The notes under the pieces were generated by a model. The model saw only the letters and a list, made by a program, of their open reading frames with translations, made no database searches and had not been told where the DNA came from. Below, piece by piece: positions 3,123 through 59,047 of a stretch of DNA of 64,000 nucleotides (position 1 is its first letter; each line of letters opens with the position of its first letter). A program made the translations under genes and the position numbers. Source of the stretch: Capsulimonadaceae bacterium (GTDB taxonomy: Bacteria > Armatimonadota > Armatimonadia > Armatimonadales > Capsulimonadaceae); NCBI GenBank assembly GCA_965215505.1, contig OZ244065.1:2592001-2656000 (forward strand), written 5' to 3'.

Positions 3123-4793
3123 ATGAGCGACGTCAAGAGCGAGATCAAGATCACCAAAGAAGAGCGGCTGAAGAAGGAAAAGGCGGGCCTGGACGTTCTG
3201 GCCGACATCTACCGGTACGCCGAGACCGGATTCGACGCCATCGAGCCGGGCGACTTCATGCGCTTCAAATGGTACGGCGTGTACCAGCAGCGGCCCAACG
3301 AGGGCCACTTCATGATGCGGATCAAGGTCCCCGGTGGGCGCATGACGAGCGAGCAGCTCCGCACCGTCGCCGACCTGACCGAGACCTACGCGCGCGGCAT
3401 CGGCGACATCACCACCCGCCAGACCATCCAGCTCCACTGGCTGACCATCCAGGACATGCCGGACATCTTCGCCCGGCTCAATGCAGTCGGCGTGACCACA
3501 GCCGGTGCCTGCGGCGACATCACCCGCAACCTGACTTCGTCCCCGGCGGCGGGCTTCGACCCGCAGGAGCTTGTTGACACCCGGCCCGCCGTGGACGCCA
3601 TCCAGGACTTCTTCCACCTGAACCGCGACTTCGGCGACCTGCCGCGCAAGTTCAAGATCGCCGTGGAAGGCTCCCCCGTCCAGAGTACGCTGCCGCAGAT
3701 CAACGACGCCTCGCTGATCGCCCACAGGCGCGAGTCCGACGGCGTGGTCGGCTACCACTTCTTCGTCGGCGGCGGGCTGTCCCTCCAGCCCTTCTTCGGG
3801 CAGATGATCGACGTCTTCGTTCCCGCCACCGAACTCGACAAGATCGTGGACGTCATGCGGGCCATCGCCGAGTGCTACCGGGACGCCGAGCAGCTCCGCG
3901 CCAAGCGCACCCGCGCCCGGCTGAAGTACCTGATGGCCGAGTGGGGGCCGGAGAAGTTCACCGCCGAGGTCCGCGCCAAGCTCGACTGGACGCCCGACTC
4001 GGCCGCGCCGGGCTTTGAATTCTCCGATGAGACCTACCGGGACCATATCGGCGTCCACGCCCAGTCCCAGCCGGGCCTGAATTGGATCGGCCTGTGCGTC
4101 CTGGCCGGCCGGCTCACCGACACGCAGATGCGCCTGGCCGCCGACGTCGCCGCCAAGTACGGCGGCGGCGAGGTCCGCACGACGAACGTCCAGAACCTGC
4201 TGATCCCGCACATCACGACCGAGGACCTGCCCGCCGCTCAGGCGGAGCTTGCGGCGGGCGGCTTCGCCTGGGACGTGCCCAACATCCGGCGCGGGGCCAT
4301 CGCCTGTACGGGCATCGAGTTCTGCAACCTGGCGATCACCGAAACCAAGCTGCGGATCAAGGAGGTCCTCGTCCACCTGGAAGAGGTCGCCCCGAACCCC
4401 TACGAGCGCGGCCTGAAGATCAACATGAACGGCTGCCCGAACTCCTGCGCCCAGCACCACGTCGGCGACATCGGCCTCCAGGGCTGCCTCGCCCGGCTCG
4501 ACGACGGCTCCCAGGTGGAGGCTTACGATGTCCACCTGGGCGGCGATCTGGGCGCGCACCCGTCCTTCACCCGCGCCATCCACCGCAAGGTGCCCGCCGA
4601 GAAGGTCAAGTACGCCCTGGGCAACGTCATCCGGCGCTTCCAAGAAACCCGCGAGGGCGAGGAGCGGTTCGCGCAGTGGGCGCACCGCCACACCAACGAG
4701 GAACTGGACGCTTACCTTGGCGTCGAAACCATCGTCGGTGCCCCCGACCTGCCGGCCTCGGCCCAGGGGGCAGGCGTGACGACTTGGCGGTAG
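3123..4793 (+). CDS. Ferredoxin-dependent nitrite/sulfite reductase (siroheme, NirA/Sir family)
   Basis: FKWYGVYQQR, ITTRQTIQLH, GACGDITRN, LPRKFKIA, ACTGIEFCNLA and NGCPNSCAQH (siroheme/4Fe-4S ligands). Confidence 0.93.
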   Translation: MSDVKSEIKITKEERLKKEKAGLDVLADIYRYAETGFDAIEPGDFMRFKWYGVYQQRPNEGHFMMRIKVPGGRMTSEQLRTVADLTETYARGIGDITTRQTIQLHWLTIQDMPDIFARLNAVGVTTAGACGDITRNLTSSPAAGFDPQELVDTRPAVDAIQDFFHLNRDFGDLPRKFKIAVEGSPVQSTLPQINDASLIAHRRESDGVVGYHFFVGGGLSLQPFFGQMIDVFVPATELDKIVDVMRAIAECYRDAEQLRAKRTRARLKYLMAEWGPEKFTAEVRAKLDWTPDSAAPGFEFSDETYRDHIGVHAQSQPGLNWIGLCVLAGRLTDTQMRLAADVAAKYGGGEVRTTNVQNLLIPHITTEDLPAAQAELAAGGFAWDVPNIRRGAIACTGIEFCNLAITETKLRIKEVLVHLEEVAPNPYERGLKINMNGCPNSCAQHHVGDIGLQGCLARLDDGSQVEAYDVHLGGDLGAHPSFTRAIHRKVPAEKVKYALGNVIRRFQETREGEERFAQWAHRHTNEELDAYLGVETIVGAPDLPASAQGAGVTTWR

Positions 4794-4796
4794 GTT
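4747..4796 (+). repeat. Direct repeat copy 1: reductase 3' end
   Basis: 44/50 identical to 7627-7676 (offset 2880); encodes LPASAQGAGVTTWR*. Confidence 0.9.
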
Positions 4797-4803
4797 ACAG
4801 AAG

Positions 4804-4843
4804 TAGGAGAGGCCGCCGGGGATACTCCCGGCGGCCTCTCCTA
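4804..4843 (+). terminator. Hairpin/terminator after the reductase
   Basis: 17-bp perfect stem TAGGAGAGGCCGCCGGG / CCCGGCGGCCTCTCCTA. Confidence 0.75.
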
Positions 4844-5068
4844 TGCTCAGAAGTAGAGGCTACCTTGCCTTTTCTGACCGGTCTTGTTATAATAGGCCTA
4901 GAGCTATCCTCAGCCCAAAATGTTCAGCATATCGTCTGACATATCGCAGGAAGTACAACAGAACTTTCCTAAGACTTGCGAACAGGTTCAAGCGGGCTGG
5001 TGCGGCTCTTTGGAGCACATTCCAAGCAAGACGTTTCGTAACGGTATATACCCCCGGTGTAACAAATC

Positions 5069-7507
5069 ATGGCTTGGAAATCTCCGTCACAGATCAAGAA
5101 ATTTTTGCAGGAATATGATAAGGCGGGGCGATTAGAACAATTATTCGCCTTGAGCGAGTTCGGGAAGTGGGCGATCTTCCCACTCGATTATGTCGCATCA
5201 CCTCGTTGGGTCGAGTTGGTTGAACTGACAGAAGCGGGGAAAAGCCTGCTCGCCCGAGATCCCGGAATATACGACGATGTCGCAATTGGCGACATATACT
5301 TCGCAATCTTTGGCCTCTTCTATGCCCAAGACATTCTGATTGATGTAGAGGGAAGCGACTTGGAAGGCATAAGGGCCGTTCTAGATGTAGAAGCCCTCAA
5401 AGGCCGGATCAGGTGGCCTTACAGATTTGGGCGTCTTCTCTATAATAAATACAATTCCCAGTTTCCGGAGGGGGAGATCGCTTTTCTTATTTCAGAGCAA
5501 ATTGCTGAGTTTCTGAATGATACTCCTCAAGGTGTCTATCAGATTGGAACGCTCCTATCAGGCCCACTCGGTTTTCTTACAAGCAGAGAGAACAGATTCA
5601 TTCCCCCATCGCTAGAAATGCCTTTATGGCACTGCTCTGACCCAGGATGCTCGCGGTTTCATACAGTGGGCTTTCTCCCACCAAACATAGCACCTGTTGT
5701 TGAAGCATATGCACGTCTGGATGAGGGCGCAAGAAAACTCGGCCCTCCCTCTCCATGGAGATCACAGTTGGCTCGTCTTGGTCGAAAGGATAAAGTAGTC
5801 GAGGCCGATGGTAGGCTTTATGCAGACCTCCCGGCTGTTCTTGGAGGAAACATCGTTGGAGTAGAACGGACGAAGCTATTGGCAAGGGTGCTAAAATCAG
5901 AGCATGCTTCTTGGCTTCGTCAAATCATTGGTGCGCCTCCGCGCCGAAAGCAACAGGCAGAGGGTATTGCCGAAGACGTTGCTTCTAAACTGAGTGAGGC
6001 AGAGCAAGTGCAATTGCTCCTCCTGTTGCCAGACAGTGATTTAGTTACTCAGATTGACCAAGCCATATTCAGCCGCGAAATACCCATCCCTCCTAACGAG
6101 GTAAGGAAATCGGATGCCACACAAGTTGTTTGGCGGAATGACCCTTCAAGTGAGGTTTCTTCATTAGGGATACGCGCAGCAAGGACGCGACCTTTGATCA
6201 CTTTGTTCTCCGTTGTTTGGGAGGCGTATCAGGCGCTCAACCTTGTCGATGAGTTGGATTGGAAGCTTCACAAAGGCCCAGAGAGGTCTTCTCGCGACGC
6301 TTTGGCTAGTTATGTCGAAGGCGCGGGTCCAGCGGCGGCTGTCCGCCAACTCATCATGTCTAGTAAGCCAATCAGCCTAAGGATCAGTGATGAGCTGGGG
6401 TTGGCATTAAATGAGCAGGACGATCCTGATGTATTAGCTGATAGGTTCCTATGGAAATTAGGGTTTAGTCCCTTCCGTTACGACACGGAGTACAGTGTTC
6501 TGCGCGCACGCATGAATCAGTTCCGGGAGACTTTGCTCCAGATAGGAGAAATCAAAAGTGAAGCGAGTCGTGAAGCGATTCGCAGCACCGGGGTAAACCT
6601 TTTTGTATCTGTTGAACATTTTCTAGAACATTTGATTGCCTTCAATATTTGGCTCCTTGTCTCGGACCATTTTCTCAAAACTCGCTTTGTTTACGAAGCA
6701 GAAGCGGCTGTCGCTTCAGTCAGCTCCGCTCTGGAACCAATCAACACCACAGAAGGGCAATCTATCCAGTGGAACAAGAACGGTGGTAACACACTTGGTG
6801 TACTCCTTGCCTATCTGAGCCAGGCTGTGAAGTGGATTGAGGCACTGCCCGAGCGGGAACGGCACCCTTTGGCAAGGGAAGAGCATGATATTCCTAGTTA
6901 CGCCAACAGTAGCGAGCGTGTCTTTCCACTGAAACACTATGAGATGTGGGCGGATAGCGACTCAAGAGAGTTATCGCTTTTTGCACACGGCTTCAAGACA
7001 GTAGCGAATCAGCTTTCCAGAGCCAATCTTGCATCCATAAGGAACGGCCTTGACCACCATCGTTCAGAGGATGCCTTTCCAACAGCGGAAGGCATGATTG
7101 CTTGTGTGACTTGGCTGAAAGACGGTTTGGACTATGCTGACCTACATCGCTACATCCCAAAAACGTTTTGGCTTCAGTCGCGCAGTGAGGATCAATTTGG
7201 AGGACGGCAATACATGTTGCAAGATTATTTAGACCGCCCACTAGCATTACGAGGACCATCGATATTGACTGGAGTGCCGCTCGCGACATTCAACAAGCCT
7301 CTAATAATCGCGCCTGGAAATCTTCTCGGCTTACCAAATGCAGAACTGAAGTTTCGTGTAGAAGATCGTAGCGCGTTCTCTAAATATTGGGAGGGTTTCC
7401 CACTTAGGCGTCAAGTAGAAAAGAAAGGTTCTGATCCAGACGAAAACCTGGATAACACGCCTCTAGTGAACGATGCGGAGGCAGGGGATTTGGTTCAACC
7501 TGTTTAG
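5069..7507 (+). CDS. Low-GC 812-aa protein, putative HEPN-domain defence protein
   Basis: Long intact ORF with much lower GC than its flanks (line 5401-5460 is 27/60 GC). R-X4-H motif IRNGLDH near the C-terminus; HCSDPGCSRFH metal-binding-like motif. Function is inference. Confidence 0.6.
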   Translation: MAWKSPSQIKKFLQEYDKAGRLEQLFALSEFGKWAIFPLDYVASPRWVELVELTEAGKSLLARDPGIYDDVAIGDIYFAIFGLFYAQDILIDVEGSDLEGIRAVLDVEALKGRIRWPYRFGRLLYNKYNSQFPEGEIAFLISEQIAEFLNDTPQGVYQIGTLLSGPLGFLTSRENRFIPPSLEMPLWHCSDPGCSRFHTVGFLPPNIAPVVEAYARLDEGARKLGPPSPWRSQLARLGRKDKVVEADGRLYADLPAVLGGNIVGVERTKLLARVLKSEHASWLRQIIGAPPRRKQQAEGIAEDVASKLSEAEQVQLLLLLPDSDLVTQIDQAIFSREIPIPPNEVRKSDATQVVWRNDPSSEVSSLGIRAARTRPLITLFSVVWEAYQALNLVDELDWKLHKGPERSSRDALASYVEGAGPAAAVRQLIMSSKPISLRISDELGLALNEQDDPDVLADRFLWKLGFSPFRYDTEYSVLRARMNQFRETLLQIGEIKSEASREAIRSTGVNLFVSVEHFLEHLIAFNIWLLVSDHFLKTRFVYEAEAAVASVSSALEPINTTEGQSIQWNKNGGNTLGVLLAYLSQAVKWIEALPERERHPLAREEHDIPSYANSSERVFPLKHYEMWADSDSRELSLFAHGFKTVANQLSRANLASIRNGLDHHRSEDAFPTAEGMIACVTWLKDGLDYADLHRYIPKTFWLQSRSEDQFGGRQYMLQDYLDRPLALRGPSILTGVPLATFNKPLIIAPGNLLGLPNAELKFRVEDRSAFSKYWEGFPLRRQVEKKGSDPDENLDNTPLVNDAEAGDLVQPV

Positions 7508-7626
7508 CAGGGCGGTTCTTCGCAACATACCCGCAATGAAAGATCGTATGATGGTTTACTCACTGTTATCAATTTGTGCAAGCAGTTATAACTACGGATA
7601 AATCAGTGAGAGTGCCATACGCTCGC

Positions 7627-7676
7627 ACCTGCCGACCTCGGCCCAGGGCGCGGGCGTGACGACGTGGCGGTGAGTT
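7627..7676 (+). repeat. Direct repeat copy 2: displaced reductase 3' end
   Basis: Encodes LPTSAQGAGVTTWR*; differences from copy 1 are mostly synonymous. Confidence 0.9.
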
Positions 7677-7683
7677 GATCCAC

Positions 7684-7714
7684 AAAGGGCGGGCCTTACG
7701 GCTCGCCCTTTTTT
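7684..7714 (+). terminator. Intrinsic terminator after the displaced 3' end
   Basis: AAAGGGCGGGCC-TTAC-GGCTCGCCCTTT followed by a T-run. Confidence 0.75.
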
Positions 7715-7743
7715 GTTGCCAGCCTTCGGGTAGAATACGCGCT

Positions 7744-8826
7744 ATGAAACTCGATAAGCTGACCATTCGCGGCTACAAGTCCATCAAAGAGTTGAAAGAC
7801 TTTGAGCTCCGCAACCTGAACGTACTCATCGGTGCAAATGGCGCGGGCAAGAGCAACCTCCTGAGCCTCTTCCGCTTGTTAAATGCGATAGCGGAAGGCA
7901 ATTTGCAGGTGTATATCCAAAAGCAAGGCGGGCCGGATGCGCTGCTGTTCGGCGGGCGCAAGCGCACAGCACAACTGGATGCTCTGTTCTACTTTGGTGA
8001 CAATGGGTATTGGATTAGGCTGGCTGCCACTGCCGATAACCGCCTTATCTTTGAGCGCGAAGAAACACTATTCAAAGGGAAGATGAACCAAGTGAGTTAT
8101 CCACCCCTGGCTGGCTATCCAGAGGCATGGCTGCTGAACAATCTCACACCCGAAAGCCAGTCTGTCCGTCCCCCTTTGCAGCGCTGGCGGCTGTATCACT
8201 TCCAAGATGCAAGCGACGCAGCGGCAGTCAAGCAGCCCCACCCGAGTAATGACAACCTGCGATTGAAACCCGACGCAGCTAACCTTGCGGCGTTCCTGGC
8301 AAGCCTCCGCGCGGGCTTCCCAAGCGAATACAGGCGAATCGTAGAAACCATCCGGCTGGCTGCGCCGTTCTTCGGCGATTTCGTGATCCGCGACCCGCTG
8401 CCGCCGACTGTGGAACTGGAATGGACCGAGCGTGGAGACCCGGACACCCCCTACCGCGCCCATGTGCTGTCCGACGGCACCCTGCGCTTTATCTGCCTGA
8501 CGACCCTGCTGCTCCAGCCCCTCGCCCTGCGCCCCGACACGATCCTCATAGATGAGCCGGAGCTGGGACTGCACCCTTACGCCATCAACCTGCTGGCCGA
8601 GATGCTGAAACAAGCCTCCGCCGACAAACAGGTCATCGTCTCCACGCAGTCCGTCGAACTGCTCAACAACTTCACGCCCGAAGACGTGATCGTGGCGGAC
8701 CGTGAGGACGGCGCTTCTGTCTTCAAGCGGTTGGATGCGGATGAGTTAAAAGACTGGCTGGAAGACTACACCCTGGGCGAGTTGTGGAAGAAGAACATTC
8801 TGGGCGGGAGGCCGACGCGCACATGA
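7744..8826 (+). CDS. ABC/AAA_21 family ATPase
   Basis: IRGYKSIK, LIGANGAGKSN (Walker A), LSDGTLRF, ILIDEPELGLHP, VIVSTQS. Start taken at ATG 7744. Confidence 0.92.
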   Translation: MKLDKLTIRGYKSIKELKDFELRNLNVLIGANGAGKSNLLSLFRLLNAIAEGNLQVYIQKQGGPDALLFGGRKRTAQLDALFYFGDNGYWIRLAATADNRLIFEREETLFKGKMNQVSYPPLAGYPEAWLLNNLTPESQSVRPPLQRWRLYHFQDASDAAAVKQPHPSNDNLRLKPDAANLAAFLASLRAGFPSEYRRIVETIRLAAPFFGDFVIRDPLPPTVELEWTERGDPDTPYRAHVLSDGTLRFICLTTLLLQPLALRPDTILIDEPELGLHPYAINLLAEMLKQASADKQVIVSTQSVELLNNFTPEDVIVADREDGASVFKRLDADELKDWLEDYTLGELWKKNILGGRPTRT

Positions 8827-9527
8827 ACGCCCCCATGCGCCTGGTGTTCGTGGTGTGCGAGGGGCAGACCGAAGAAACATTCGTGCGCGACGTGCTGGCA
8901 CCCGCGTTTTATCCTCAGCTTAACCTTATCGGGCAGATCATCGAGACTTCGCCGGGTCATAAGGGCGGCGGCCTCTCGTATCAGCGGGTGCTGAGGCATC
9001 TGCGGGACACGCTCCGCCAGTCGAGCGCGCCGTTCGTGACCACGCTGTTTGATCTATACCAATTGGACACCGACTTTCCTGGTCACCGCGAGGCGACGGG
9101 AAAACCTCTAGAGCAACGGCTCAACCTTCTGAACGCCAGCCTCCATAGAGCTGTCGTTGCTGCCACAGGCTGTCAGCCCGACCGCTTCCTGCCCTACATC
9201 CAGCCTTACGAGTTTGAAGCCTTGCTGTTCAGTGATGTGGCGGCTTTGACCGGCCTGAACGACACTTGGGCGGGCGCAGAGGCGAAGCTGCAAGCCATCC
9301 GAGACAGTGCCGAGACGCCGGAGCATATTGATGACGGACCGACCACGAAACCTGCGGCCCATCTAGAGCGGCATCTGACACAACCGAACTACAGCAAGAG
9401 GCTGGATGGGCCGAGGGCTATATCAAGGATCGGCCTCGCCAAGATCGAGCAGGAGTGCCGCTACTTTGCCGCGTGGCTCGCCTCGTTGCGTGAACTCGCC
9501 GCTCTGGAAGCGGCTGGGATGGACTGA
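8823..9527 (+). CDS. DUF4276 family protein (TOPRIM-like)
   Basis: VVCEGQTEETFV, TTLFDLY, PYIQPYEFEALLFSD, PEHIDDG, ECRYFAAWL; ATGA overlap with the ATPase stop. Confidence 0.85.
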   Translation: MNAPMRLVFVVCEGQTEETFVRDVLAPAFYPQLNLIGQIIETSPGHKGGGLSYQRVLRHLRDTLRQSSAPFVTTLFDLYQLDTDFPGHREATGKPLEQRLNLLNASLHRAVVAATGCQPDRFLPYIQPYEFEALLFSDVAALTGLNDTWAGAEAKLQAIRDSAETPEHIDDGPTTKPAAHLERHLTQPNYSKRLDGPRAISRIGLAKIEQECRYFAAWLASLRELAALEAAGMD

Positions 9528-9560
9528 GACGCTTTACGCAACAGGCACACCAACCCAGGG

Positions 9561-9590
9561 AGGCCGCCGGGGGTGTCCCCGGCGGCCTTT
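9561..9590. terminator. Hairpin between convergent genes, similar to 4809-4837
   Basis: AGGCCGCCGGGG-GTGT-CCCCGGCGGCCT; 25/29 identical to the hairpin after the reductase. Confidence 0.7.
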
Positions 9591-9601
9591 GTCATGCGAC
9601 C

Positions 9602-10105
9602 CTACCGCAAGTCTTGGAGTGCCGCTGCGCCGTCGCTCATCCGCCCACGATAGCTGCCCAGGCTTTGCGGGTAGTGAACGGGCAAGATCGTCCCCAGGAA
9701 CTGGAAGAGGTTCGCCAGGGAGAACAGCAGGCAGAGCATCCGCAGCGGCGGGCGCAGACGTACCCTGCGGCGGAACACGATCCCGAACGACAGCGCCAGC
9801 AGGAGCGAGACACACGGCCCCGCCAGATTGATCAGCGCCCGCCGCTGACGGCTCACGCCACGCCGGTCGTAGTCGGAGAACCCGTAAATGGCCGGCAGCG
9901 GTGCCAGGTGTATGTGGAGCCTGCCCACGGAGAAATCGAGTCCCCTTTGCCCGAACCCGGTGTTCAGCGTCACGTTCCCGCGCGTCGTGAGCAGAGCCAT
10001 CGCCGCGTGGCCGCCCTCGTGCAGCGTGGTATCCAGGGGAAACACGAGAAGCAGGAGTGCGAGTAAGATGAGGGCAAAGCGAGCTGCGAAGCGGACTGGT
10101 TTCAT
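9602..10105 (-). CDS. Membrane metallopeptidase, M50-like
   Basis: TTLHEGGHA (HEXXH), INLAGP, SDG, several hydrophobic segments. Confidence 0.75.
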   Translation of the reverse strand: MKPVRFAARFALILLALLLLVFPLDTTLHEGGHAAMALLTTRGNVTLNTGFGQRGLDFSVGRLHIHLAPLPAIYGFSDYDRRGVSRQRRALINLAGPCVSLLLALSFGIVFRRRVRLRPPLRMLCLLFSLANLFQFLGTILPVHYPQSLGSYRGRMSDGAAALQDLR

Positions 10106-10187
10106 GGACCAAGCGAGGAGGATACTGACTTCAGGCAGCAGTGGACCTGCCTCCTGTTTGCCGCAGTCTCCCCTCAGACCTCCCGTT

Positions 10188-11462
10188 TTAGTGAACGGCT
10201 GAAGTAGACGGCTGACGTTCAGCCAGCGCTTCCCGGAGCGCCGGGCAAAGCAGTGGCGGGTCGGATTGACGGATCACGATCTCCGGCGTGCCGTGCCACC
10301 GCGCCAGCGGAGCCAGCACCCCCGCAAGTCCATGAACCAGTGCTTCGGTCATGGGTGTGGCCTCCTCAAGATGAATTGACTTGACCTCAAACAACCCCTC
10401 GCGCCGATGCGCTTTCGCGTCCAGGCGTCCGACAAGGCCGCCCCGGTGCAGGATGGGAAGGCTGAAGTATCCATGGCGACGATGCGCGGCGGGCGTATAG
10501 ATTTCGATCCGGTAGGCGAAGCCGAACAGTGACAAGGCGCGCGCACGGTCAGACACAATGGGGTCGAACGGGGACAGCAGCGTTGTCACTGTGGAGCGAA
10601 GCGCCCCGGCGGTGGCCTGCTCCAACAAAGCCCGATTATCCCGGTGGACATAGACCGGCCCAGGCAAACCCTCCACCGCGACGGTAAAAACTTCGCCTGT
10701 ACGGGAGGCTTCTTCCAGCGTGGCCCGGATGTCCCGTGCGGACGTCCGGGAGCGCAGGAAGTCGGGGAAGTAGGGCGACAGCCAGACATCCCGTGCGAGG
10801 CCAAGCGCGCGGACGGCTTTGAGGACCAGTGCCTTCTGCCCTTCCTCCCGCGCAAGAGCGTGGGCGTCATCCCAGCCAGGCAGCACTCGTTCGCGCAGGT
10901 CGTACACGCGCTGGAACCCTTCCCGGCGGGCGATCATCAGGGCGCCCGCATTGAACAGGTGTTCCAGCGCGGCTTTCTCCGGCTTCCAATCAAACCAGGC
11001 CCGCGCCCTCTTGTCGGTCCTCTCGAAGTCTGCGGAACGGACAGCCCCCTTCTCCCGGATACGTTCGAGTACGCTCTGGGTCGCGGCTTCCTGTTCCGCA
11101 TCACGGCCGTTCAGGTAAGCGTCGCCGCCCGCATAGTCCAGCATCCGACGCCGGTAGATGCCGAAGTCTTCGATGGGCAGGAAGCAGGCAGCGTGCGACC
11201 AATACTCAAACAGCGCGCCTTCCGCCAGCAGCTCGTCCAGCCAGCGCGGTTCGTAGTCCCCGACACGGCTCCACAGCACCAGATAAGGACTGCGGGCGAC
11301 TACACTGATGGTGTCGATTTGCAGCAGGCCCATCCGCCGGATGGCCGTCAGGCAGTCCTGCTTCTGAGCCGGGGCAGAGGGGCGTCCCTCGACCGCCTTG
11401 ATTCCTTGTGCCGCAAGCAGGAGTTCTCGCGCGGCTGTCAAGGAAAGTGACACTTCCTTCAA
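10188..11462 (-). CDS. YcaQ/AlkZ-family crosslink-repair DNA glycosylase (winged helix)
   Basis: LLQIDTISVVARSPYLVLWSR, LFEYWSHAAC, LLSPFDP, YRIEIYTPAAHRRHGYF. Confidence 0.9.
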   Translation of the reverse strand: MKEVSLSLTAARELLLAAQGIKAVEGRPSAPAQKQDCLTAIRRMGLLQIDTISVVARSPYLVLWSRVGDYEPRWLDELLAEGALFEYWSHAACFLPIEDFGIYRRRMLDYAGGDAYLNGRDAEQEAATQSVLERIREKGAVRSADFERTDKRARAWFDWKPEKAALEHLFNAGALMIARREGFQRVYDLRERVLPGWDDAHALAREEGQKALVLKAVRALGLARDVWLSPYFPDFLRSRTSARDIRATLEEASRTGEVFTVAVEGLPGPVYVHRDNRALLEQATAGALRSTVTTLLSPFDPIVSDRARALSLFGFAYRIEIYTPAAHRRHGYFSLPILHRGGLVGRLDAKAHRREGLFEVKSIHLEEATPMTEALVHGLAGVLAPLARWHGTPEIVIRQSDPPLLCPALREALAERQPSTSAVH

Positions 11463-11628
11463 TACGGCCTTCCTTCTGAGCGGCTCGCTCTATTGGCTTG
11501 ATTGTTCCACGCCCCACGTCCCGGTTCCTTCCCCGCCTGCTACGCCGGACGCCTGCATGGCGGCAGAAAGCCATCCGCGTCTTTTTTCACAAACGCCGCC
11601 GCCCGAGCAGGATTCCTTCCTCCCCGCC

Positions 11629-11657
11629 TTGAACTGACCCGCGCGATATGGTACAAT
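11629..11657 (+). promoter_or_regulatory. Sigma70 promoter with extended -10
   Basis: TTGAAC-N17-TACAAT preceded by TG. Confidence 0.55.
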
Positions 11658-11706
11658 GCTGGAAACAACACGGCTCTCGCGCATAGCAAGGACGGGCCTC
11701 CCCCTT

Positions 11707-16744: not shown

Positions 16745-17548
16745 CTAAAGACTTCGTGATCCCCGACATTTTGGAAACGCTCGACAACTCCAGAACTCAT
16801 TCCCAGCGTTCCCGCCTCGGCTTGCGAGTTTCTTTAACATTGGGCCTCCACACCTGGGGCATGAAGGCTCATTCTTTTCGCTCACAACTTCCATCTTAGT
16901 TGTAGGCACCGCTGCTGAGACTACTTCCGGGGGGTGAGATTTCTCCTGCTGGGGTTCGGTGTTCTTGGTCTGCACGTCCTGAACCAGCTTCAGTAATTTA
17001 GGACCATCAATCAGTTCGAGCGGTTGCCCTTGAGACTCAGCAAGTGCCTCATGCGTGAAACTGCCGCTAATAACAAAAATGCCCCGTGTCGCCTTCTCCC
17101 TAGCAACAACCCCCCGAAGCTCCCGCACAGGAGAGACACCTACTCTTTGCGTCTTCCACTGTTTGCACTGTACTATGACTTTTTCTGAGCGCTTGTGAAG
17201 CACGAGGTCAATTCCACCATCTGCGGCAGCCCCACCCCGTTCAACAACGATATATCCCTGACGACGGAACGCTTCACCCACCATCAACTCAAAGTCGCGC
17301 CAATCCATGTCACGGATTGCTTTTATATCGGTTACGCTGGCTAGGAGTTCGTTTCTCTTCCATTTTACGAAAGGGAGAACCAGGCCAATAAACACAAATA
17401 TGCAGGCCCACTCTAGAGCCACCAACACTGAATAGCGAGCCAGAACCGCATAAGCGCCTCCCGCAAGCAGAAAAGGGACCCACCAAGGAAGAAGCATCGT
17501 GAGTGCGAAGAAAAGATCGTCAGACTTCCGGTTGTTACGTCTTGCCAT
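16745..17548 (-). CDS. Mrr-like restriction endonuclease with N-terminal TM helices and C-terminal topoisomerase-type zinc ribbon
   Basis: WRDFELMVGEAFRRQGY, ADGGIDL, VQCKQWK, ELIDGPKL, CPRCGGPM...FWSCRAFPKCRG; low GC. Confidence 0.9.
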   Translation of the reverse strand: MARRNNRKSDDLFFALTMLLPWWVPFLLAGGAYAVLARYSVLVALEWACIFVFIGLVLPFVKWKRNELLASVTDIKAIRDMDWRDFELMVGEAFRRQGYIVVERGGAAADGGIDLVLHKRSEKVIVQCKQWKTQRVGVSPVRELRGVVAREKATRGIFVISGSFTHEALAESQGQPLELIDGPKLLKLVQDVQTKNTEPQQEKSHPPEVVSAAVPTTKMEVVSEKNEPSCPRCGGPMLKKLASRGGNAGNEFWSCRAFPKCRGSRSL

Positions 17549-17781
17549 TCCAGCCTCCTTTCACACCACTTCTTCTACTGGTTCTATTCAGTTTCCTCCT
17601 CGCATTGGGGAATGTCACCGGCGTTCTATGCGGCAGGTGCATTTCGACCGTATGCCCCAGTCACCCGGCGGGCCGGACCCCCACATCGCTGGTTAGCGGT
17701 GGATATTCGGAGGAAAACGGCTTTGCTTCCTCGTCAGGGGACCTGAGACAACGACCAGACAAAAATCCCGACAAGGACCGG

Positions 17782-17805
17782 AGGGCAGGGGGAACCCGCC
17801 CTTAC
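17782..17805 (-). repeat. GTAG-type REP (GTAA variant)
   Basis: Minus strand GTAAGGGCGGGTTCCCCCTGCCCT, similar to the REPs at 24751-24941. Confidence 0.55.
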
Positions 17806-17824
17806 ACAATCATATCCTCTGCCT

Positions 17825-20338
17825 TCACGTCTTATCTTCCGTCCCCTGGACGCTGGGCTTTTCGGTGCCTCCCCCCAATAGAGCCTGGGTTTCAACCCGT
17901 GGCTCCTTCATCTCATCCTTCTTCTCCTCTTCGTCCTTCTCTGCCGCCGGCACTTCGAGCGTAACGGGGGGGAAGTCGCGGAAGCGGAACTGGTAGGTCC
18001 CGCCGGTCTTGGGCAGGCGGAAGGTGACGGCCAAGGGCGCGGCGAGGGCGCGGTCGTCCTTGGCGGGGGCGAAGCGGAAGGACCAGCCGGTTCCTTCGGC
18101 GAGGGCGGTCTGGCCCAGGACGACGACGGGGAGGCCGACGGGGCGGGCGGGGCGGCCCGGCGGGGCGGCGCGGGTGAGCGACAAGTCGGCAGGGGTGACG
18201 GTCAGCGTCCGGCGCGTCTCCGTCGTGTCGCGCAGGGTCAGGGCGACCTCGACGTGGCGGCGGCCCTCGTCGTCGCGCCCGGCGTAGGTCTCCAGTGTGG
18301 CCCCGGTCATGGTCAGCTCCCAGCCGTCGTGGACGATCTTGTCGCCGGCTCGGAAGGCGGTCTTCTGGCCCGCGCCGTGCAGGTGCTTGTCGAACCAGGC
18401 GAGGCAGCGGCGCAGCTCGTCCAGGCGGTGCTGCGGCTCGCCCAGGCCGTGGCCTTCGCGCGGGTAGTGGACGTATTCGACCGTTTTTCCCAGCAGGCGG
18501 AGGGCCTGGTACATCTCCTGGGAGTTCGCGATGAACGTATTCGGGTCGCCCTCGCCGTGCAGGATCAGCACGGGCGTGTTGATGTCCTGGAGGTAGGTGG
18601 AGGGGGAACGCTCGGCGTACAGCGCTGGCTCCTCCCAGGGGTAGCCGCCGAGATATTCGGTTTCCCAGCGCGGGGCCTGGGAGTTGGAGAAGTCCGTCAC
18701 GAGGGAGAAGATGCCGAACTGGGACACGGCGGCCTGGAAACGGTTCGTCCGGCTGATGAGCCAGTTGACGAGGTAGCCGCCGTAGGACGATCCGATGACG
18801 GCCACTTTGGAGCCGTCGGCGACGCCCTCTTTGATGACTTCGTCGATGCCGGCCAGCACGTCCACGGCGTCCCCGCCGCCCAGATCCTGGCGGCTGGCGG
18901 TGCTGAAGGCGTTGCCGTAGCCCTCGCTGCCCCGGTAGTTGGGGGACAGGACGGCGTAGCCCTCGGCGGCCCAGATTTGGGAGGCGGTGTAAGGCGAGAG
19001 TGCCTGGACGGTGCGGCCGTGCGGCCCGCCGTGCAGGGAGACGACGAGGGGGCATTTGGTGCCTTCCTCATAGTCCGGCGGCAGGGTCAGTAGGCCCTCG
19101 ATTGTCAGACCGTCGGGCGTCTCCCAGGTCAAGATGTCGGTGGGGGCGATGGCGTGGCCGTCCGCCCAATCGCCGTTGAGGTCGGTCAGGGCCTCGGCCT
19201 CTTTGGCACCCGGCGCGAGCCAGAGCAGCTCGGGGACGTCCGCTGCGCCGCTTGCGACCAGGGCCAGGCCGCCGTTGGGCGCGACGTGGTAGTCGTGGAG
19301 GTGCTGGTCGTCATCCGTCACCTGCTCCCACTGACCGCTCTCCGGGGCGGGGTCCAGGCGGAACACGACGGTCATGGTGCCGACGGCGGCGAGGGCGTAG
19401 ATGCGGCCCGCGCCGTCGGTCCAGACGCCGTGCCAGCCGGTCAGGTCGTGCGGGAAGTCCTGGGTCAGATTGACGGGGTGGCCGCCCTCGAGTGGCACGG
19501 CGTAGAGGTTCGGCTGGGAATACGAGAGGTCGGGGTCGAGCGGGGCGATGTAAAGGACCCGGTCGCCATCCCTGGTCCAAACAGGATGGAACTTGCCGCC
19601 CGGCCCGTCGGCGACCGGACGCGCCGCGCCGCTGCCGATGTCCACCACCCAGACGTCGCTCTTGTGGTAGTCGTTGACCTCGCCGGTGTAGTTTGTCGTG
19701 AAGGCGACGGTTTTGCCGTCGGGCGAGGCGGCGATCTCGCCGACGCCGTAGTCGCCCGCATGAACAAGTTTGGCCTTCTTCTTGTCCCGGTCTATCCGCC
19801 AGATCTGCTGCCTGAACTTTTCGAATCGCTCCACGACGGCATCGTCCTTGCGCTCCTGCTTGTCGTCGTGTTCGGTCTGCAAGGGCTTGGGGCGCGGCTC
19901 CTGGGCCAAATAGACGATGCCGGAGGAGTCGGGCAGCCAGTCGTAGTCCCCCACCCCTTCGGGCGCGTCGGTCAGCTTCTCGGACTCGCCGCCCCCGCCG
20001 TCCATCGGCAGCAGCCAGACCTGGACCTTCGGGTCGTCCTCGTCATAGTCGTCGCCCGCGTCCTCGTCCTCGCGGCTCGTGAGGAAGGCCAGCCACTTGC
20101 CGTCGGGGGACCAGCGCGGGTCGGTTTCGCTGTCCCGCCCGCGCGTCACCTGCCGGGGTTCGGCCTCGTCGCCTACCTTCGCGACGTACAGGTGCTGCAC
20201 GACGCTGTTGTCTTCCCAATCCGTCTCGCTGACGCCGTAGGCGATACGGACGCCGTCCGGCGCGGCCTGTACGTCACCCGGCATCTTCAGTTCCAGCAGT
20301 GCGCGCGGGGTGATCTTCTGCTTCCGTCGTTTTGCCAT
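17825..20338 (-). CDS. S9 family (acylaminoacyl/dipeptidyl) peptidase with extra C-terminal domain
   Basis: WSPDG propeller repeats, HGGPH, PNYRGSEGYG, GSSYGG nucleophile, ILHGEGD, YPREGH. Confidence 0.93.
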   Translation of the reverse strand: MAKRRKQKITPRALLELKMPGDVQAAPDGVRIAYGVSETDWEDNSVVQHLYVAKVGDEAEPRQVTRGRDSETDPRWSPDGKWLAFLTSREDEDAGDDYDEDDPKVQVWLLPMDGGGGESEKLTDAPEGVGDYDWLPDSSGIVYLAQEPRPKPLQTEHDDKQERKDDAVVERFEKFRQQIWRIDRDKKKAKLVHAGDYGVGEIAASPDGKTVAFTTNYTGEVNDYHKSDVWVVDIGSGAARPVADGPGGKFHPVWTRDGDRVLYIAPLDPDLSYSQPNLYAVPLEGGHPVNLTQDFPHDLTGWHGVWTDGAGRIYALAAVGTMTVVFRLDPAPESGQWEQVTDDDQHLHDYHVAPNGGLALVASGAADVPELLWLAPGAKEAEALTDLNGDWADGHAIAPTDILTWETPDGLTIEGLLTLPPDYEEGTKCPLVVSLHGGPHGRTVQALSPYTASQIWAAEGYAVLSPNYRGSEGYGNAFSTASRQDLGGGDAVDVLAGIDEVIKEGVADGSKVAVIGSSYGGYLVNWLISRTNRFQAAVSQFGIFSLVTDFSNSQAPRWETEYLGGYPWEEPALYAERSPSTYLQDINTPVLILHGEGDPNTFIANSQEMYQALRLLGKTVEYVHYPREGHGLGEPQHRLDELRRCLAWFDKHLHGAGQKTAFRAGDKIVHDGWELTMTGATLETYAGRDDEGRRHVEVALTLRDTTETRRTLTVTPADLSLTRAAPPGRPARPVGLPVVVLGQTALAEGTGWSFRFAPAKDDRALAAPLAVTFRLPKTGGTYQFRFRDFPPVTLEVPAAEKDEEEKKDEMKEPRVETQALLGGGTEKPSVQGTEDKT
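17841..17905 (-). repeat. TTGAAA-loop REP half element inside the peptidase 3' end
   Basis: Minus strand GAGCCACGGGTTGAAACCCAGGCTC plus inner motif GTCCCCTGGAC (17841-17851), which also occurs at 33874-33884. Confidence 0.6.
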
Positions 20339-24750: not shown

Positions 24751-24941
24751 AGGGCGGGGGGACCCCGCCCCTACACGGATGTGAAGGCATTGCGTAGGGA
24801 CAGGGCTTATCCTACCTTTTCGCTTGACGCAAGGCGGTTGCACATGACTGGGGGCAGGAGCAACCATAAGGGAGGGCAACCACAGGGGGGTTGCCCCTAC
24901 CGGGACTGGACTGCGTAGGGGCAGGCCCCCGTGCCTGCCCT
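24751..24941. repeat. Cluster of four GTAG-type REP elements in alternating orientation
   Basis: 24751-24774 (-) GTAGGGGCGGGGTCCCCCCGCCCT; 24794-24817 (+, degenerate); 24873-24900 (-) GTAGGGGCAACCCCCCTGTGGTTGCCCT; 24915-24941 (+) GTAGGGGCAGGCCCCCGTGCCTGCCCT. Confidence 0.8.
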
Positions 24942-24973
24942 TCCTTGCCCGTGTTTGCCGGACAACAGCCTCG

Positions 24974-27258: not shown

Positions 27259-27358
27259 CGGGCCGTGCCGCGTCGGGCCGTGCCGCGTCGGGCCGTGCCG
27301 CGTCGGGCCGTGCCGCGTCGGGCCGTGCCGCGTCGGGCCGTGCCGCGTCGGGCCGTGC
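27259..27358 (+). repeat. Tandem repeat, 15-bp unit x6 plus partial
   Basis: CGGGCCGTGCCGCGT six perfect copies, running into the left arm of the REP doublet. Confidence 0.95.
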
Positions 27359-27494
27359 GTTGAAACGCACGGCTAGACGGCGAAGACGCCACGAAGTACC
27401 GCTTCGCGGCACTAGGAACGACCATCCTTAGCCCCGCGAAGCGCGGGCTTGTCGGCGTCCGCGCCGTTTAGCCGTGCGTTTCAACGCATGGTCC
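27350..27494. repeat. TTGAAA-loop REP doublet (REPIN/MITE-like hairpin)
   Basis: Left GCCGTGCGTTGAAACGCACGGCTAGACGGCG; right CGCCGTTTAGCCGTGCGTTTCAACGCATGG; inner CCGCTTCGCGG / CCGCGAAGCG. Confidence 0.85.
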
Positions 27495-29232: not shown

Positions 29233-30963
29233 ATGTTTCGCGCATTCGGGCGAGGGGTTGAAAACCCTCTCGCTAGGAGAAGCACCCTCCGGGTGTGGGA
29301 GGGGGTTTCTCGTCGTCCGCAGGACGCCCCTCCTAGCGAGCGGTTTTCAACCGCTCGTCTCATCTTCGCTCCCTTGCTCCCCGCCGCCCTGCTGGCACTG
29401 ACCGGCTGCGGCCACCACGGCGGCACGTCCGCCGGCGCGGGGGGCGGGAACGTCCTGCACGTCGCCATGGCGACCGCCCCCGTCACCTTCGACCCGGCCA
29501 TGTGCCAGGACGTCGAGACCACCCAGATGCTCCAACAGACCTATGAAGGGCTGGTGCAGTACGGCCCGAAAAATACGGTCGTTCCGTGTCTCGCCGAGAA
29601 GTGGGACGTGAGCAAGGACGGCCTCACCTATACCTTCCACCTGCGCCCCGCGACCTTCCAGAACGGCATGCCCGTCACTGCCGATGACGTGGCGTTTTCG
29701 CTGCGCCGCGCCCTGGACCCCAAGCTGTCCTCTCCCGTCGCCGCCCAATACCTCGGGGACATCGCGGGCGCTCTGGACGTCTTCAACGGCAAGGCGACCG
29801 ACCTGAAAGGCGTGAAAGTCGTTGACCCGAAGACGGTCGCCATTACCATCACCAAGCCCAAGGCCTACTGGGTGGACACGCTCACCTACCCGACCGGATG
29901 GGTCGTCTGCAAGGCCATCGCCGTCAAGGACGGGACGAACCCGATGACCGAGGCCGATGCGGAGGCCGGCGCGGCGAGCGGGGCGTTCAAGATCACCCGC
30001 TTCCTGAAAGACCAGGAAGTAGACATGGACGCCAACCCGCACTACTGGGATGGTGCGCCGAAGATCGCCGGGCAGGTGGAGCGCGTCCTGCTCGACCCGA
30101 CCACGCGCCACGCCGAGTTCGCCGACGGGCAGATCGAGGTCATGCGCGCCCTGCAAGTGGGGGACCTGGACAGCGACCGCAAGGACTCGAAGCTCAAGGA
30201 CCGGATCAAGATCTGGCCGCGCGCCGGCATCAACTATCTCGGGCTGAACGAGGCCGTTTACCCGCCCTTCAAAGACCCGCGCGTCCGGCAGGCCTTCGCC
30301 TATGCCACCGACAAGCAGAAGATCATCAGCGTCGTGACCGAGGGCGTCTACCCCGCCGCCCCGGACCTGCTGCCGGCGGGCATTCCGGGCGGCGACCCGG
30401 ACTACAAGGGCATCCCTTATGATCCGGAGAAGGCGAAGCAACTGCTGGCGGCGGCGGGCTTCCCCGGCGGGCGCGGGCTGCCCCCGCTGGAGGTCTACGG
30501 CAACGAGAAGAACCCACTGTCGGAGAAGACCGTGGACGTCCTGCGCCAGATGTACGGCACGACTTTGGGCGTCCCCATCAGCGTCCGTCAGATGGAACTC
30601 GGCTCATTAATCGCCGCCATCAACAAGAATACGACCGTCCCGTGCTTCGTCCTGGGCTGGTACGCTGATTATCTAGACCCGCAGGACTTTTACAGCCTGC
30701 TGCTGTCCTCGCAAAGTCCCGAGAACCACACCGGCTACCGCAACCCGACTTTTGATGCCCTCTGCACCCGCGCCGACACCGAGCAGAACCCGGCCGCCCG
30801 GACCGCCCTGTACCGTAAGGCGGCGCAGATCGCCGGGGCCGAGCCGGACCGCATCCCGCTCTACTACGCCGTAGACCCCGAGCTGATCAGCCCGCGCGTC
30901 CAGGGGCTGGAGGACTGCCTGATGGGGCACCTGCCCTACAAGCGGCTGACGCTGACCCACTGA
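29233..30963 (+). CDS. Second OppA-like substrate-binding lipoprotein
   Basis: LTGC lipobox; paralogous to 27558-29207 throughout; N-terminus contains an in-frame REP doublet. Confidence 0.92.
   Translation: MFRAFGRGVENPLARRSTLRVWEGVSRRPQDAPPSERFSTARLIFAPLLPAALLALTGCGHHGGTSAGAGGGNVLHVAMATAPVTFDPAMCQDVETTQMLQQTYEGLVQYGPKNTVVPCLAEKWDVSKDGLTYTFHLRPATFQNGMPVTADDVAFSLRRALDPKLSSPVAAQYLGDIAGALDVFNGKATDLKGVKVVDPKTVAITITKPKAYWVDTLTYPTGWVVCKAIAVKDGTNPMTEADAEAGAASGAFKITRFLKDQEVDMDANPHYWDGAPKIAGQVERVLLDPTTRHAEFADGQIEVMRALQVGDLDSDRKDSKLKDRIKIWPRAGINYLGLNEAVYPPFKDPRVRQAFAYATDKQKIISVVTEGVYPAAPDLLPAGIPGGDPDYKGIPYDPEKAKQLLAAAGFPGGRGLPPLEVYGNEKNPLSEKTVDVLRQMYGTTLGVPISVRQMELGSLIAAINKNTTVPCFVLGWYADYLDPQDFYSLLLSSQSPENHTGYRNPTFDALCTRADTEQNPAARTALYRKAAQIAGAEPDRIPLYYAVDPELISPRVQGLEDCLMGHLPYKRLTLTH
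29251..29357. repeat. TTGAAA-loop REP doublet within the oppA2 5' coding region
   Basis: CGAGGGGTTGAAAACCCTCTCGCTAGGAG ... CTCCTAGCGAGCGGTTTTCAACCGCTCG. Confidence 0.85.
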
Positions 30964-32813: not shown

Positions 32814-32913
32814 AGGGGACGAGTGACTGAAATCAGTCGCTGACGGGGACCTGTCCAGGGGACAGGAGCAGGACAAGGAACGGGGCCTTTAGAGTACGTT
32901 GAGAAAGTCTGCG

Positions 32914-33809: not shown

Positions 33810-33933
33810 AACTACAGTGTACTTGAACGACCAAGACTTTTTCAACATACTCTTAGAATCATCCCATTCCCTTGTCCCCTGGACAAATCCTGCCATAGCG
33901 AGTGATTTCAATCACTCGTCCTCATGTCTCCAG

Positions 33934-38255: not shown

Positions 38256-38289
38256 GTACAGCCTTCTGAGACGCCAGAAAAGCACAACT

Positions 38290-39366: not shown

Positions 39367-39555
39367 TGGAACGCCCTCCGGAATAGTGTCTTACCGCTCC
39401 GTAGAAGCCATTCGCCGTGTCTAACGGGGCAGGCACTATGATAACCCATAAACTTCTACAGAGCGCTCAACACCCTCTAGCCTCCTCCCTGACAGCAACC
39501 ACCTCGACAATCGAAAGATGCGGAAATCCTACGGAACACGAAGAGCAAAGCGGCA

Positions 39556-39595
39556 CAAAAAACTGCTTGACTTTTCGCCGGGCCTGTGTTAAAGT
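39556..39595 (+). promoter_or_regulatory. Promoter / direct repeat copy 2
   Basis: Same 27-bp core GCTTGACTTTTCGCCGGGCCTGTGTTA with -10 TAAAGT. Confidence 0.85.
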
Positions 39596-39716
39596 AGGGG
39601 AACACCGAATTCCGGCCATGAACTCCGGCCCCGAACCTGCCGAACACACAACCCACCGACGTGTCATAAACCGTTCACGCGCTATGGCCCGATCCCCCTT
39701 GCCTGGAGGCGTTTGC

Positions 39717-58918: not shown

Positions 58919-58920
58919 CA

Positions 58921-59047
58921 ACGCAGACCCCCCTAGGCCTGCCTGGAAGCGTTGGAGTTGATGCGGCAGGTGATGTATGGCTGTGATTTTACTACCACCC
59001 GGCTTGAAAGACTTTTTGAGATTGCTCGGCTCAGGCGCATGGAGTAG
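58921..59047 (+). pseudogene. 5'-truncated remnant of a small antitoxin-like gene
   Basis: QTP..LEALELMRQVMYGCDFTTTRLERLFEIA resembles small proteins recalled as lying upstream of nucleotidyltransferase genes; no search run. Confidence 0.45.

Follow-up and report, generated by a model that had tools for sequence, protein, structure and literature searches.

This study provided evidence that the last 15 codons of a nitrite/sulfite reductase gene occur twice, 2880 bp apart, on either side of a single foreign gene in a 64,000-nt stretch of the genome of a Capsulimonadaceae bacterium (assembly GCA_965215505.1, contig OZ244065.1, positions 2,592,001 to 2,656,000 of the forward strand). This whole stretch is called the window, and positions are counted from its first letter. 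The repeat, the empty sites in relatives, the foreign cargo gene and the recombinase-less state of the cassette were observed directly. The 2.88-kb unit is tentatively interpreted as a recombinase-less, single-gene cassette of the cis-mobilizable element (CIME) kind, which would have entered by means of an integrase encoded elsewhere. In the following, G000 is the source genome of the window, G0xx and G1xx are other genomes, Lxxx are loci, and X1 to X5 are public sequencing runs.

The target gene (3123..4793, forward strand) encodes a NirA/Sir-type nitrite/sulfite reductase of 556 aa, which matched Pfam NIR_SIR (3.9e-48) and NIR_SIR_ferr (9.9e-42); its best NCBIfam matches, ferredoxin-nitrite reductase and the NirA family, were both under the cut-off. 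Tail copy 1 (4747..4796, forward strand) is the translated gene end and comprises the last 15 codons of the reductase, the stop codon TAG and three further bases. Tail copy 2 (7627..7676, forward strand) is a 5'-truncated, untranslated reductase-end relic with the stop codon TGA. The alignment bore out the preliminary description of this region, made from the letters alone, in that the two copies are direct repeats identical at 44 of 50 positions with a start-to-start distance of 2880. A degenerate pattern of the 36-nt tail core matched twice in the window, compared with no match in 100 shuffles, and exactly twice in the whole G000 genome (6,177,771 bases), and no third copy of the reductase tail was found in the window or the genome. 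The codon comparison likewise reproduced the differences listed earlier: 5 of the 15 codons differ, four of them keeping the residue or the stop (GGG/GGC, GCA/GCG, ACT/ACG and TAG/TGA), and the fifth changes Ala to Thr in copy 2.

The second copy is not an assembly chimera, a source of error that the preliminary description had raised, because contigs from two public runs cover both copies without a single difference: a 3883-nt contig of run X1 spans 4725–8607, and a 3013-nt contig of run X3 spans 4739–7751. Both runs may come from the source organism. Among the X1 and X3 contigs, none joined 4796 to 7677 and none held a circle junction, an uninformative result since contigs drop rare forms. 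A variable/template repeat pair of the diversity-generating retroelement type was also considered and rejected, as there is no reverse transcriptase domain and the mismatches (G/A, G/C, A/G, T/G and AG/GA) are not confined to adenines.

Each tail copy is followed by a hairpin of its own, as had been described. Behind copy 1 stands a perfect 19-bp hairpin without a T-run (4803..4844, forward strand; -43 kcal/mol, z -7.8), which is homologous to the hairpin found after the reductase in G011. Behind copy 2 stands a canonical intrinsic terminator with a 12-bp stem and a T-run (7684..7711, forward strand), which has homologs in G022 and G013 and would end the reductase transcript in relatives. Between the hairpin of copy 1 and the cargo lie a promoter-like site, P1 (4865..4893, forward strand; TTGCCT, a 17-nt spacer and TATAAT with TG; 10/12 in a sigma-70 consensus scan), and the low-GC leader of the foreign segment (4894..5068, forward strand), where no similarity to G011 was found past 4893. 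According to alignments with G011, G022 and a second G000 copy at 2697082–2697114, P1 reproduces, in truncated form, the promoter of a membrane-protein gene. The cargo gene itself, encoding 812 aa (5069..7507, forward strand), is the sole long open reading frame (ORF) between the tail copies. It is followed by a trailer (7508..7626, forward strand) with no terminator-like site; 7508–7630, where the attC hairpin of an integron cassette would be expected, folds no better than shuffles (z -0.4). The GC content is 0.51 in 4794–5068 and 0.50–0.51 over 5001–8000, compared with 0.65–0.70 to the left. The earlier statement that only one low-GC gene and no recombinase lie between the copies therefore holds: no recombinase domain was detected in the cassette and its surroundings with Pfam, NCBIfam and PHROGs, and no integrase remnant was found there. 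Neither the 4803–4844 hairpin nor the cassette ends form a repeat family in G000, where each is single copy.

Alignment of orthologous loci, which had been proposed as a way to find empty sites, did reveal them. The reductase is present in all 41 related genomes, and the DNA following it was compared in 20 of these. None of the 20 stretches encodes the 812-aa protein, and the cargo is also absent from the 70 other genomes of the order, so that G000 alone of 71 carries it. Relatives carrying both copies with the same cargo were not encountered: no second tail copy was found in 19 relatives, with 1.3–12 kb examined past the reductase, except for a partial 16–21-nt tandem copy in G011. In G013, a homologous terminator comes directly after the reductase stop, then the same GGGTAGAAT box and homologs of both genes of the HEC-01 pair that stands behind copy 2 in the window (HEC-01A and HEC-01B, with 77% and 62% aa identity). 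G022 likewise has this terminator after the stop, and next come the first 18 codons of HEC-01A, a stop and the promoter of the membrane-protein gene (L033 / G022:C638 ~29680–29740); this stub is what a deletion has left of the HEC-01 pair. A contig in run X4, which comes from another study, belongs to a relative ~83% identical to the window and joins 4789 to 7685 with 14 other letters. The arrangements in G013, G022 and X4 are empty sites. The original tail of the reductase, now displaced, is the best reading of copy 2, because its terminator and HEC-01 directly follow the reductase stop in G013, in G022 as a remnant, and in X4. The claim that the original tail was displaced to 7627 is thereby well supported.

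The arm carrying copy 1 has a different relative. Four features follow the reductase stop of G011: first a partial tail copy of 21 nt, next a homolog of the 4803–4844 hairpin, then a promoter, and last a gene for a 263-aa membrane protein. The window is collinear with this hairpin and promoter over 4794–4893, and the similarity ends right past the -10 box (4893), where the low-GC DNA starts. The hairpin and promoter of the copy-1 arm are chromosomal in G011, so this arm looks like flank captured from a related strain's chromosome and not like an arm specific to an element. The preliminary description had proposed an incoming, attP-like replacement tail; copy 1 can still be taken as the incoming copy, but what lies behind it is chromosomal-type flank. 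Each tail copy is thus joined to a downstream flank that follows a full-length reductase in some relative, and together with the protein-conserving differences this supports the view that both tails look like working gene ends under protein-level selection, as had been suggested.

Further variation surrounds this site. The sequence past the reductase stop differs in nearly every member of the genus. The membrane-protein gene directly follows the reductase in G011 and G022, whereas in G000 it lies ~100 kb downstream behind the second promoter copy, separated from the reductase by ~93 kb of single-copy core genes that are located elsewhere in relatives. The wider region is therefore rearranged. 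When the reductase was compared with G011 and G022 for mosaicism, in windows of 150 nt, no clear switch was seen, G011 being slightly closer at 4176–4625. Two contigs of G002 (C16 and C132; L014 and L050) share an exact 141-nt overlap and diverge at the stop codon of the reductase, a branch point of the assembly graph that suggests variation among strains from the stop onward. The 21-nt partial tandem copy in G011 (L052 / G011:C417), with two differences, lies between the stop and the hairpin; it could have arisen by slippage during replication, or it could be a scar left when an earlier insertion used this site. One extra tail match with one mismatch, ending in TGG, was found in G013.

For the proposed insertion we infer a circle, a crossover and an enzyme, just as the function of the cargo is inferred below. 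The incoming circle would have carried the 812-aa gene together with its own copy of the reductase tail and ~100 nt of flank containing the hairpin and the near-consensus promoter. One reciprocal crossover between chromosome and circle, within the last ~47 nt of the reductase gene, would have let the reductase read into the incoming tail (copy 1) with its protein unchanged, and would have left the captured promoter P1 facing the cargo. The resident tail (copy 2) would have been pushed 2880 bp downstream along with its terminator and the HEC-01 genes, so that the old reductase terminator would now end the cargo transcript. The crossover enzyme would have been a site-specific integrase encoded on another element, absent today or lost. 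A single reciprocal crossover agrees with the geometry, because the truncated copy lies on the far side, abutting the right end of the foreign DNA with the intact gene on the left, because both copies are protein-conserving, and because the lone residue-changing difference falls in the left part of copy 2, which under this model is circle-derived and was never translated. As the score of P1 and the lack of a terminator in the trailer indicate, the cargo would lie between a promoter that it has borrowed and the terminator displaced from the reductase.

The same layout was found around distant homologs of the cargo. In the genome_contigs collection, 28 of 31 loci were analysed, the other three being cut by a contig end within the match; in the metagenome collection, 53 of 80 loci were tabulated (27 partial matches were left out), of which 52 were testable, many of them on contigs with very short flanks. 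A flanking direct repeat of at least 30 nt was present at 5/28 genome loci and 5/52 metagenome loci. For comparison, such a repeat occurred in 13/300 random 2.4-kb segments of G000, and among 21 long loci it was found in five real cassettes, against none of the upstream and one of the downstream pseudo-cassettes. The GC content of the cargo gene is below that of the upstream flank at 26 of the 28 genome loci, L055 being an exception and L074 having too little flank.

At L061, a segment made up of the final 176 nt of rpoC, with its stop, and the terminator behind it is repeated 3.0 kb downstream, and all five codons that differ among 58 keep their residue. The rpoC tail and terminator are also repeated at L150 (at least 195 nt, 98%, cut by the contig start), where the downstream copy comprises 223 rpoC codons and begins ~40 nt past the cargo stop. 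At L072 the unit is bounded by a tRNA-Glu gene and a 44-nt stretch that repeats the 3' part of this gene perfectly, from the first base of the anticodon loop on. The repeat of L063 is 35–50 nt of the tail of an upstream 143-aa ORF, that of L135 is the spacer just past the stop of the upstream ORF, and that of L133 is 78 nt long, its nature unassigned by Rfam. In the seven units formed by the window, L061, L063, L072, L133, L135 and L150 (2.5–3.6 kb), the cargo-family gene stands alone inside. It is co-oriented with the upstream gene wherever that gene is identifiable (the window, L061, L063, L072, L150 and L135), and the 5'-truncated copy lies on the far side in every clean case. Other repeats were not counted as tail duplications: those of L101 and L104 look like generic palindromic repeat elements, and those of L054 and L070 like partial paralogs or large repeats. 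Rfam returned nothing for the repeats of L063, L101, L104, L133, L135 and others. No conserved cassette ends were found, as the 450 nt upstream and downstream of 29 loci share only one 19–21-nt match (L071/L073); a transposon with its own ends was rejected on this ground.

A same-strand tRNA gene lies just upstream of the homolog at 4/28 genome loci and at 1 of the 56 metagenome loci scanned, and no tRNA 3' repeats of at least 16 nt were found downstream of L056, L076 and L081. The closest genome_contigs homolog (L056 6001–8420, 50% identity, from a metagenome-assembled genome (MAG) of Rubrobacteraceae) lies 118 nt behind a tRNA-His gene; its frame is broken and open for 561 aa only, and the frames at L067 and L070 are broken too. 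In one Hymenobacter genome (L058), genes for resolvase-type serine recombinases stand on both sides of the homolog (5361–5942 and 8989–9687), beside a DUF6602 gene.

The tRNA locus L072 provides the precedent for mobilization in trans within this family. The nearest relative of the L072 genome, G102, whose flanks are 95–98% identical, has an empty site for the L072 cassette. At the same tRNA-Glu gene, G102 carries an 8.2-kb element with a tyrosine integrase by the tRNA, a Prim-Pol/DnaB-like protein, a helix-turn-helix protein and a HigB-type pair, and this element has a 32-nt tRNA copy at its far end. Behind the 44-nt copy of L072 come 212 nt with 91% identity to the left end of the G102 element, the last ~100 nt of the tyrosine-integrase gene among them, and then the chromosomal flank. 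Because these 212 nt match the G102 element including its integrase end, the L072 cassette stands in tandem with the remnant of an integrase element, which is the CIME picture. The anticodon loop, where the L072 repeat starts, is a classical crossover place of integrases; Williams is said to have described such a start in 2002 as typical for them. The earlier proposal of a minimal, trans-mobilized cassette is therefore plausible by analogy with L072, but the recombinase that it expected beside the same tail was found neither in G000 nor in the 23 genus genomes. A candidate integrase remnant at L081 was examined by tblastn with 5–6 integrases and rejected (E 0.009, not convincing).

The cargo protein belongs to no family in Pfam, PADLOC, NCBIfam or PHROGs. 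One search returned 66 homologs, at most 50% identical and all unnamed or labelled hypothetical bar one odd UniRef label, and an exhaustive search returned 770 clusters (50% identity) at E<=1e-3, of which 663 remain at <=1e-10 and 442 at <=1e-30. Almost all of the clusters are ~800 aa long with a single full-length match, and the loci are spread over many bacterial phyla and two archaeal MAGs. Relatives in the Protein Atlas are unnamed clusters only, and no Pfam family recurs at E<=1 across 37 members. A phage origin was rejected, with no relatives in viral_contigs and no PHROG. The AlphaFold2 model is confident (predicted local distance difference test (pLDDT) 90 overall and 92 for residues 1–468), and Foldseek searches of the PDB with the whole protein and the N-terminal half returned nothing at E<=1e-3; the one PDB sequence-profile match (E 0.18) was judged to be chance. 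In the VIA-wide comparison, the best Z for the N-terminal half was 5.2, covering residues 374–468 only. The model thus predicts an N-terminal region (1–468) with no known fold.

The helical domain at residues ~470–700 aligned with the HEPN chains 8xdj, 7ae2, 1wwp, 5yep and 2hsb at VIA-align Z 6.4–7.4, values tied with those of unrelated 7-helix receptors, over 115–127 residues at 2.8–3.3 A. R658 and H663 are invariant across 37 aligned sequences in an R-N-x-x-x-H pattern, which corresponds to the HEPN-type Rx4H motif. No match to curated HEPN profiles of Pfam or NCBIfam was obtained. Also invariant are H188, C189, C194 and H198, forming an H-C-C-H cluster at 188–198, and several Arg residues. 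Nothing in the protein matched a fold or family of recombinases, transposases or nucleases. From the model and the motif, it is probably a HEPN-like RNase with a new, sensor-like N-terminal region, and its most likely role would be that of a stand-alone protein of the defence or abortive-infection type.

With regard to the enzyme that acted in the window, an integrase in trans is placed slightly ahead of host homologous recombination. It is favoured because L072 provides a precedent and because the repeat is too short and too mismatched for RecA; a repeat of 50 nt with no perfect run above 13 nt is poorly suited to RecA-type recombination. Under the competing explanation, which is a real though lesser possibility, the same circle and the same crossover were driven by host homology without any integrase, the tail copies being the reductase-end alleles of two related strains; the circle would have been excised from a strain with the gene behind the hairpin and promoter, and could re-enter any genome sharing the tail. 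Several observations weigh against an integrase. The tail pattern occurs once in each of the 23 genus genomes, leaving aside the one-mismatch match in G013, and twice in G000 alone, and no integrase of matching specificity was found beside any tail copy in these genomes. The copy-1 arm has the chromosomal character of the spacer between reductase and membrane-protein gene in G011 and is not element-like. No circle or empty-site form of the organism itself (organism A) was seen in the contigs, the only material searched. A tblastn search with six integrases against 4794–11700 gave a best E of 0.76, and the recombinases of G000 (five ORFs with a Phage_integrase and five with a Resolvase domain) lie no nearer than ~400 kb. 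Repeats are long in the rpoC cassettes L061 and L150, where no integrase is present. G079, which is related to the L061 genome, has ~540 nt of the rpoC 3' end repeated 7.4 kb downstream at 90–100% identity (L208 / G079:C15 138420–146390), around an FHA/Trans_reg_C regulator, a Ser/Thr kinase with PD40 repeats and unknown ORFs, with no integrase. In G000 itself, two-copy direct repeats of 43–158 nt, 88–96% identical, surround low-GC 1–2-kb inserts at L165–L169 (103232–104452, 492156–493182, 3251658–3252703, 4241323–4242798 and 5435153–5437545) with unrelated cargo, namely unknown ORFs, small ORFs beside an RHS-repeat gene, a GT87 glycosyltransferase, and a pair of TetR and alcohol dehydrogenase; the L165 insert is missing from relatives. 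These other repeats of G000 fit a general homology-driven route better.

Host recombination is thus supported by the chromosomal-type arms on both copies (G011 for copy 1; G022, G013 and X4 for copy 2), the varied repeat lengths (44, 50, 176, at least 195 and ~540 nt), the lack of an integrase for the site in 24 genomes and the other inserts of this kind, including that of G079. The residue-keeping differences in four of five codons of the window and in all those of the L061 rpoC repeat are what functional alleles would be expected to have, and the lack of shared conserved ends among the cassettes points in the same direction. A hint comes from metagenome run X5 of another study, where cassette pieces (4850–5503, 5795–6119 and 7104–7333) are 97–99% identical and reductase pieces 92–94%, with the right junction (7495–7693) kept; these pieces are short, of low depth and unlinked, and a recent spread of the cassette is a lead only. 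On the other side, the shared tail of 47–50 nt at 88% is very short for RecA, the L072 repeat begins exactly at the anticodon loop beside an integrase remnant, which speaks for a site-specific event in at least one family member, and the first capture of the flank would still require an illegitimate event.

An explanation without any circle, which seems unlikely, would join two flank haplotypes in several steps at a rearrangement-prone hotspot, for example if the large rearrangement that parted the reductase from its former neighbour came with unequal or illegitimate recombination; as a variant, copy 1 with its hairpin and promoter may be resident, and the cargo, copy 2 and HEC-01 imported. 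The displacement of the membrane-protein gene by ~93 kb of core genes, the variation past the stop in nearly every genus member, the branching of the G002 contigs exactly at the stop, the 21-nt copy in G011 and the retention of only 18 HEC-01A codons in G022 would suit such a hotspot. It needs more events than one crossover, though, it leaves the tidy single-gene tail-duplicating layout of the distant homologs unexplained, and the order reductase, terminator, HEC-01 in G022 and G013 looks like an intact resident haplotype. It is very unlikely that the 812-aa protein is itself a new recombinase and the cassette a minimal self-mobile element. That the cargo family is the only gene of seven repeat-flanked units at different targets, co-oriented with the identifiable upstream gene, is what such an element would produce, and the confidently modelled N-terminal 468 residues of no known fold, with the invariant H-C-C-H cluster and Arg residues, would leave room for an enzyme; but no recombinase, transposase or nuclease family was detected, the cassettes lack conserved ends, most loci lack a flanking repeat, the conserved motif is of the RNase (HEPN) type, other tail-duplicating inserts hold unrelated cargo, and L072 has an integrase remnant beside it. 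Barely conceivable is an in-place duplication of the tail followed by drift, or an assembly artefact. Nothing specific favours it beyond the fact that duplications do occur, such as the tandem copy in G011, whereas two read assemblies bridge both copies without difference, each copy has its own flank with a homolog in relatives, and protein-conserving differences including a stop-to-stop change are not expected from drift in a dead copy.

If the reading as a recombinase-less cassette is true, a genome can gain a single accessory gene downstream of an assimilation gene without cost to the latter, the cargo borrowing a promoter on one side and a displaced terminator on the other, with no need for a recombinase of its own. 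The layout was seen around distant homologs at rpoC and a tRNA gene, around other cargo in G000 and at rpoC in G079; because it recurs at those sites, tail-duplicating entry may be a common and overlooked route for small defence-type genes. A truncated, protein-conserving second copy of a gene end could serve as the signature in searches for it. A broader and doubtful reading is that the ~800-aa HEPN-like family is the usual payload of widespread, undescribed minimal single-gene cassettes that home by the 3' end of a host gene. Such cassettes would have no recombinase and no conserved ends, would use rpoC, tRNA or reductase ends as arms and keep the target gene intact, and would exit at the repeats and re-enter wherever the gene end is shared, the other repeats of G000 being further examples. 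The 770-cluster family, with its confidently predicted new N-terminal fold and likely RNase motif, is a candidate for functional work.

The resident neighbour behind copy 2 is a candidate HEC-01 defence pair (7744..9527, forward strand), consisting of an AAA_21 ATPase (7744–8826) and a DUF4276 protein (8784–9527). The two genes are adjacent, as HEC-01A and HEC-01B are, and matched PADLOC at 1.6e-139 and 5e-67 along with the Pfam families AAA_21 and DUF4276. Between this pair and an AlkZ-like gene (10188..11462, reverse strand; Pfam 9.8e-65; no DNA match in five relatives) lies a stretch without clear genes, and small ORFs at 9.5–10.2 kb gave just a sub-threshold M50-like match. The AlkZ-like gene is the last accessory gene. 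Because the DNA from ~11570 on is core genome, 90% identical to G011 from 11573 onward, the accessory islet extends over ~4894–11570.

Several other features were noted. Further dips in GC content (0.53–0.57 in a background of 0.65–0.72) at 17001–18000, 37001–40000 and 58001–59000 of the window may be other foreign inserts. Repeat families of ~70–140 nt at 27353–27493, 24853–24960 and 17780–17916, with dozens of copies at 72–92% identity in all five relatives searched, look like miniature inverted-repeat transposable elements or repetitive extragenic palindromes. A 971-bp element at ~32887–33857, with 99.9%-identical copies at 2486628–2487598 and 4039958–4040928 of the genome, is probably an insertion sequence. 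Outside the window, L172 of G000 (4775250–4779700) has 4–6 copies of a 64–107-nt repeat ~1 kb apart among small low-GC ORFs (118–208 aa) with no Pfam family. These repeats have the ends GCCTAAC ... GTTAGGC, which we take to be integron attC core sites, and the locus may be an integrase-less cassette array. In G079, a 141-nt tandem triple repeat follows the rpoC insert (L208 8873–9295).

The kind of event described here is already known. The closest parallel is the element e14 in the icd gene of E. coli, which supplies the 3' codons, with hardly any change to the protein, and leaves the original 163-bp end as pseudo-icd', as described in PMC6379469. As in e14, the incoming DNA in the window swaps a gene 3' end for a protein-conserving copy and displaces the original to the far side. 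Whereas e14 is a prophage with its own integrase, the window unit is one gene with no recombinase, and its replacement tail runs into the chromosomal-type flank of a relative. Integration at the icd 3' end is also known from phage 21.

CIMEs are known mainly from streptococci. As defined in PMC6323972, they are flanked by att-like repeats and have no integrase of their own. The window unit resembles them in lacking integration and transfer genes, and its direct repeats may be the attL and attR of an integrase. It differs from them in that its repeats are just 88% identical, it is a single gene, and no element with a cognate integrase occupies the site in G000 or the 23 genus genomes, with no recombinase within ~400 kb; an integrase element at the same site was found for the homolog locus L072, through G102. 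L072 and G102 also resemble tandem tRNA islands, with an intact tRNA-Glu, an island, a partial 3' tRNA copy (44 or 32 nt) and different islands in close relatives, whereas the target in the window is the end of a protein-coding gene with no integrase nearby. In ISCR1 and complex class 1 integrons, a circle with cargo and part of the conserved segment re-enters by homologous recombination and duplicates the 3'-conserved segment. This has the same geometry as host-driven re-entry in the window, but there a rolling-circle transposase makes the circle, and none is present here. The unit also differs from an integron cassette, as no integron integrase above cut-off occurs in G000 (TIGR02249, best 71.5 bits against a cut-off of 265).

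In orphan rhs and cdiA-CT regions, according to PMC3967940 and PMC4927057, a new 3' end joins a conserved body and the old tip is displaced downstream as an orphan, together with part of the conserved region. There the new tip alters the toxin and brings an immunity gene, whereas the tip in the window leaves the protein as it was and the payload comes as a gene of its own. The minimal mobile elements of Neisseria, in which differing whole-gene cassettes lie between the same conserved genes, are exchanged by double crossover; they resemble the variable stretch past the reductase stop, but unlike the window unit they leave no duplication. Compared with e14/icd, CIMEs and tandem islands, what is new here is a combination: the unit, one gene without a recombinase, occupies the end of a reductase gene, its cargo family is large and uncharacterized, and the tail-duplicating layout recurs across phyla.

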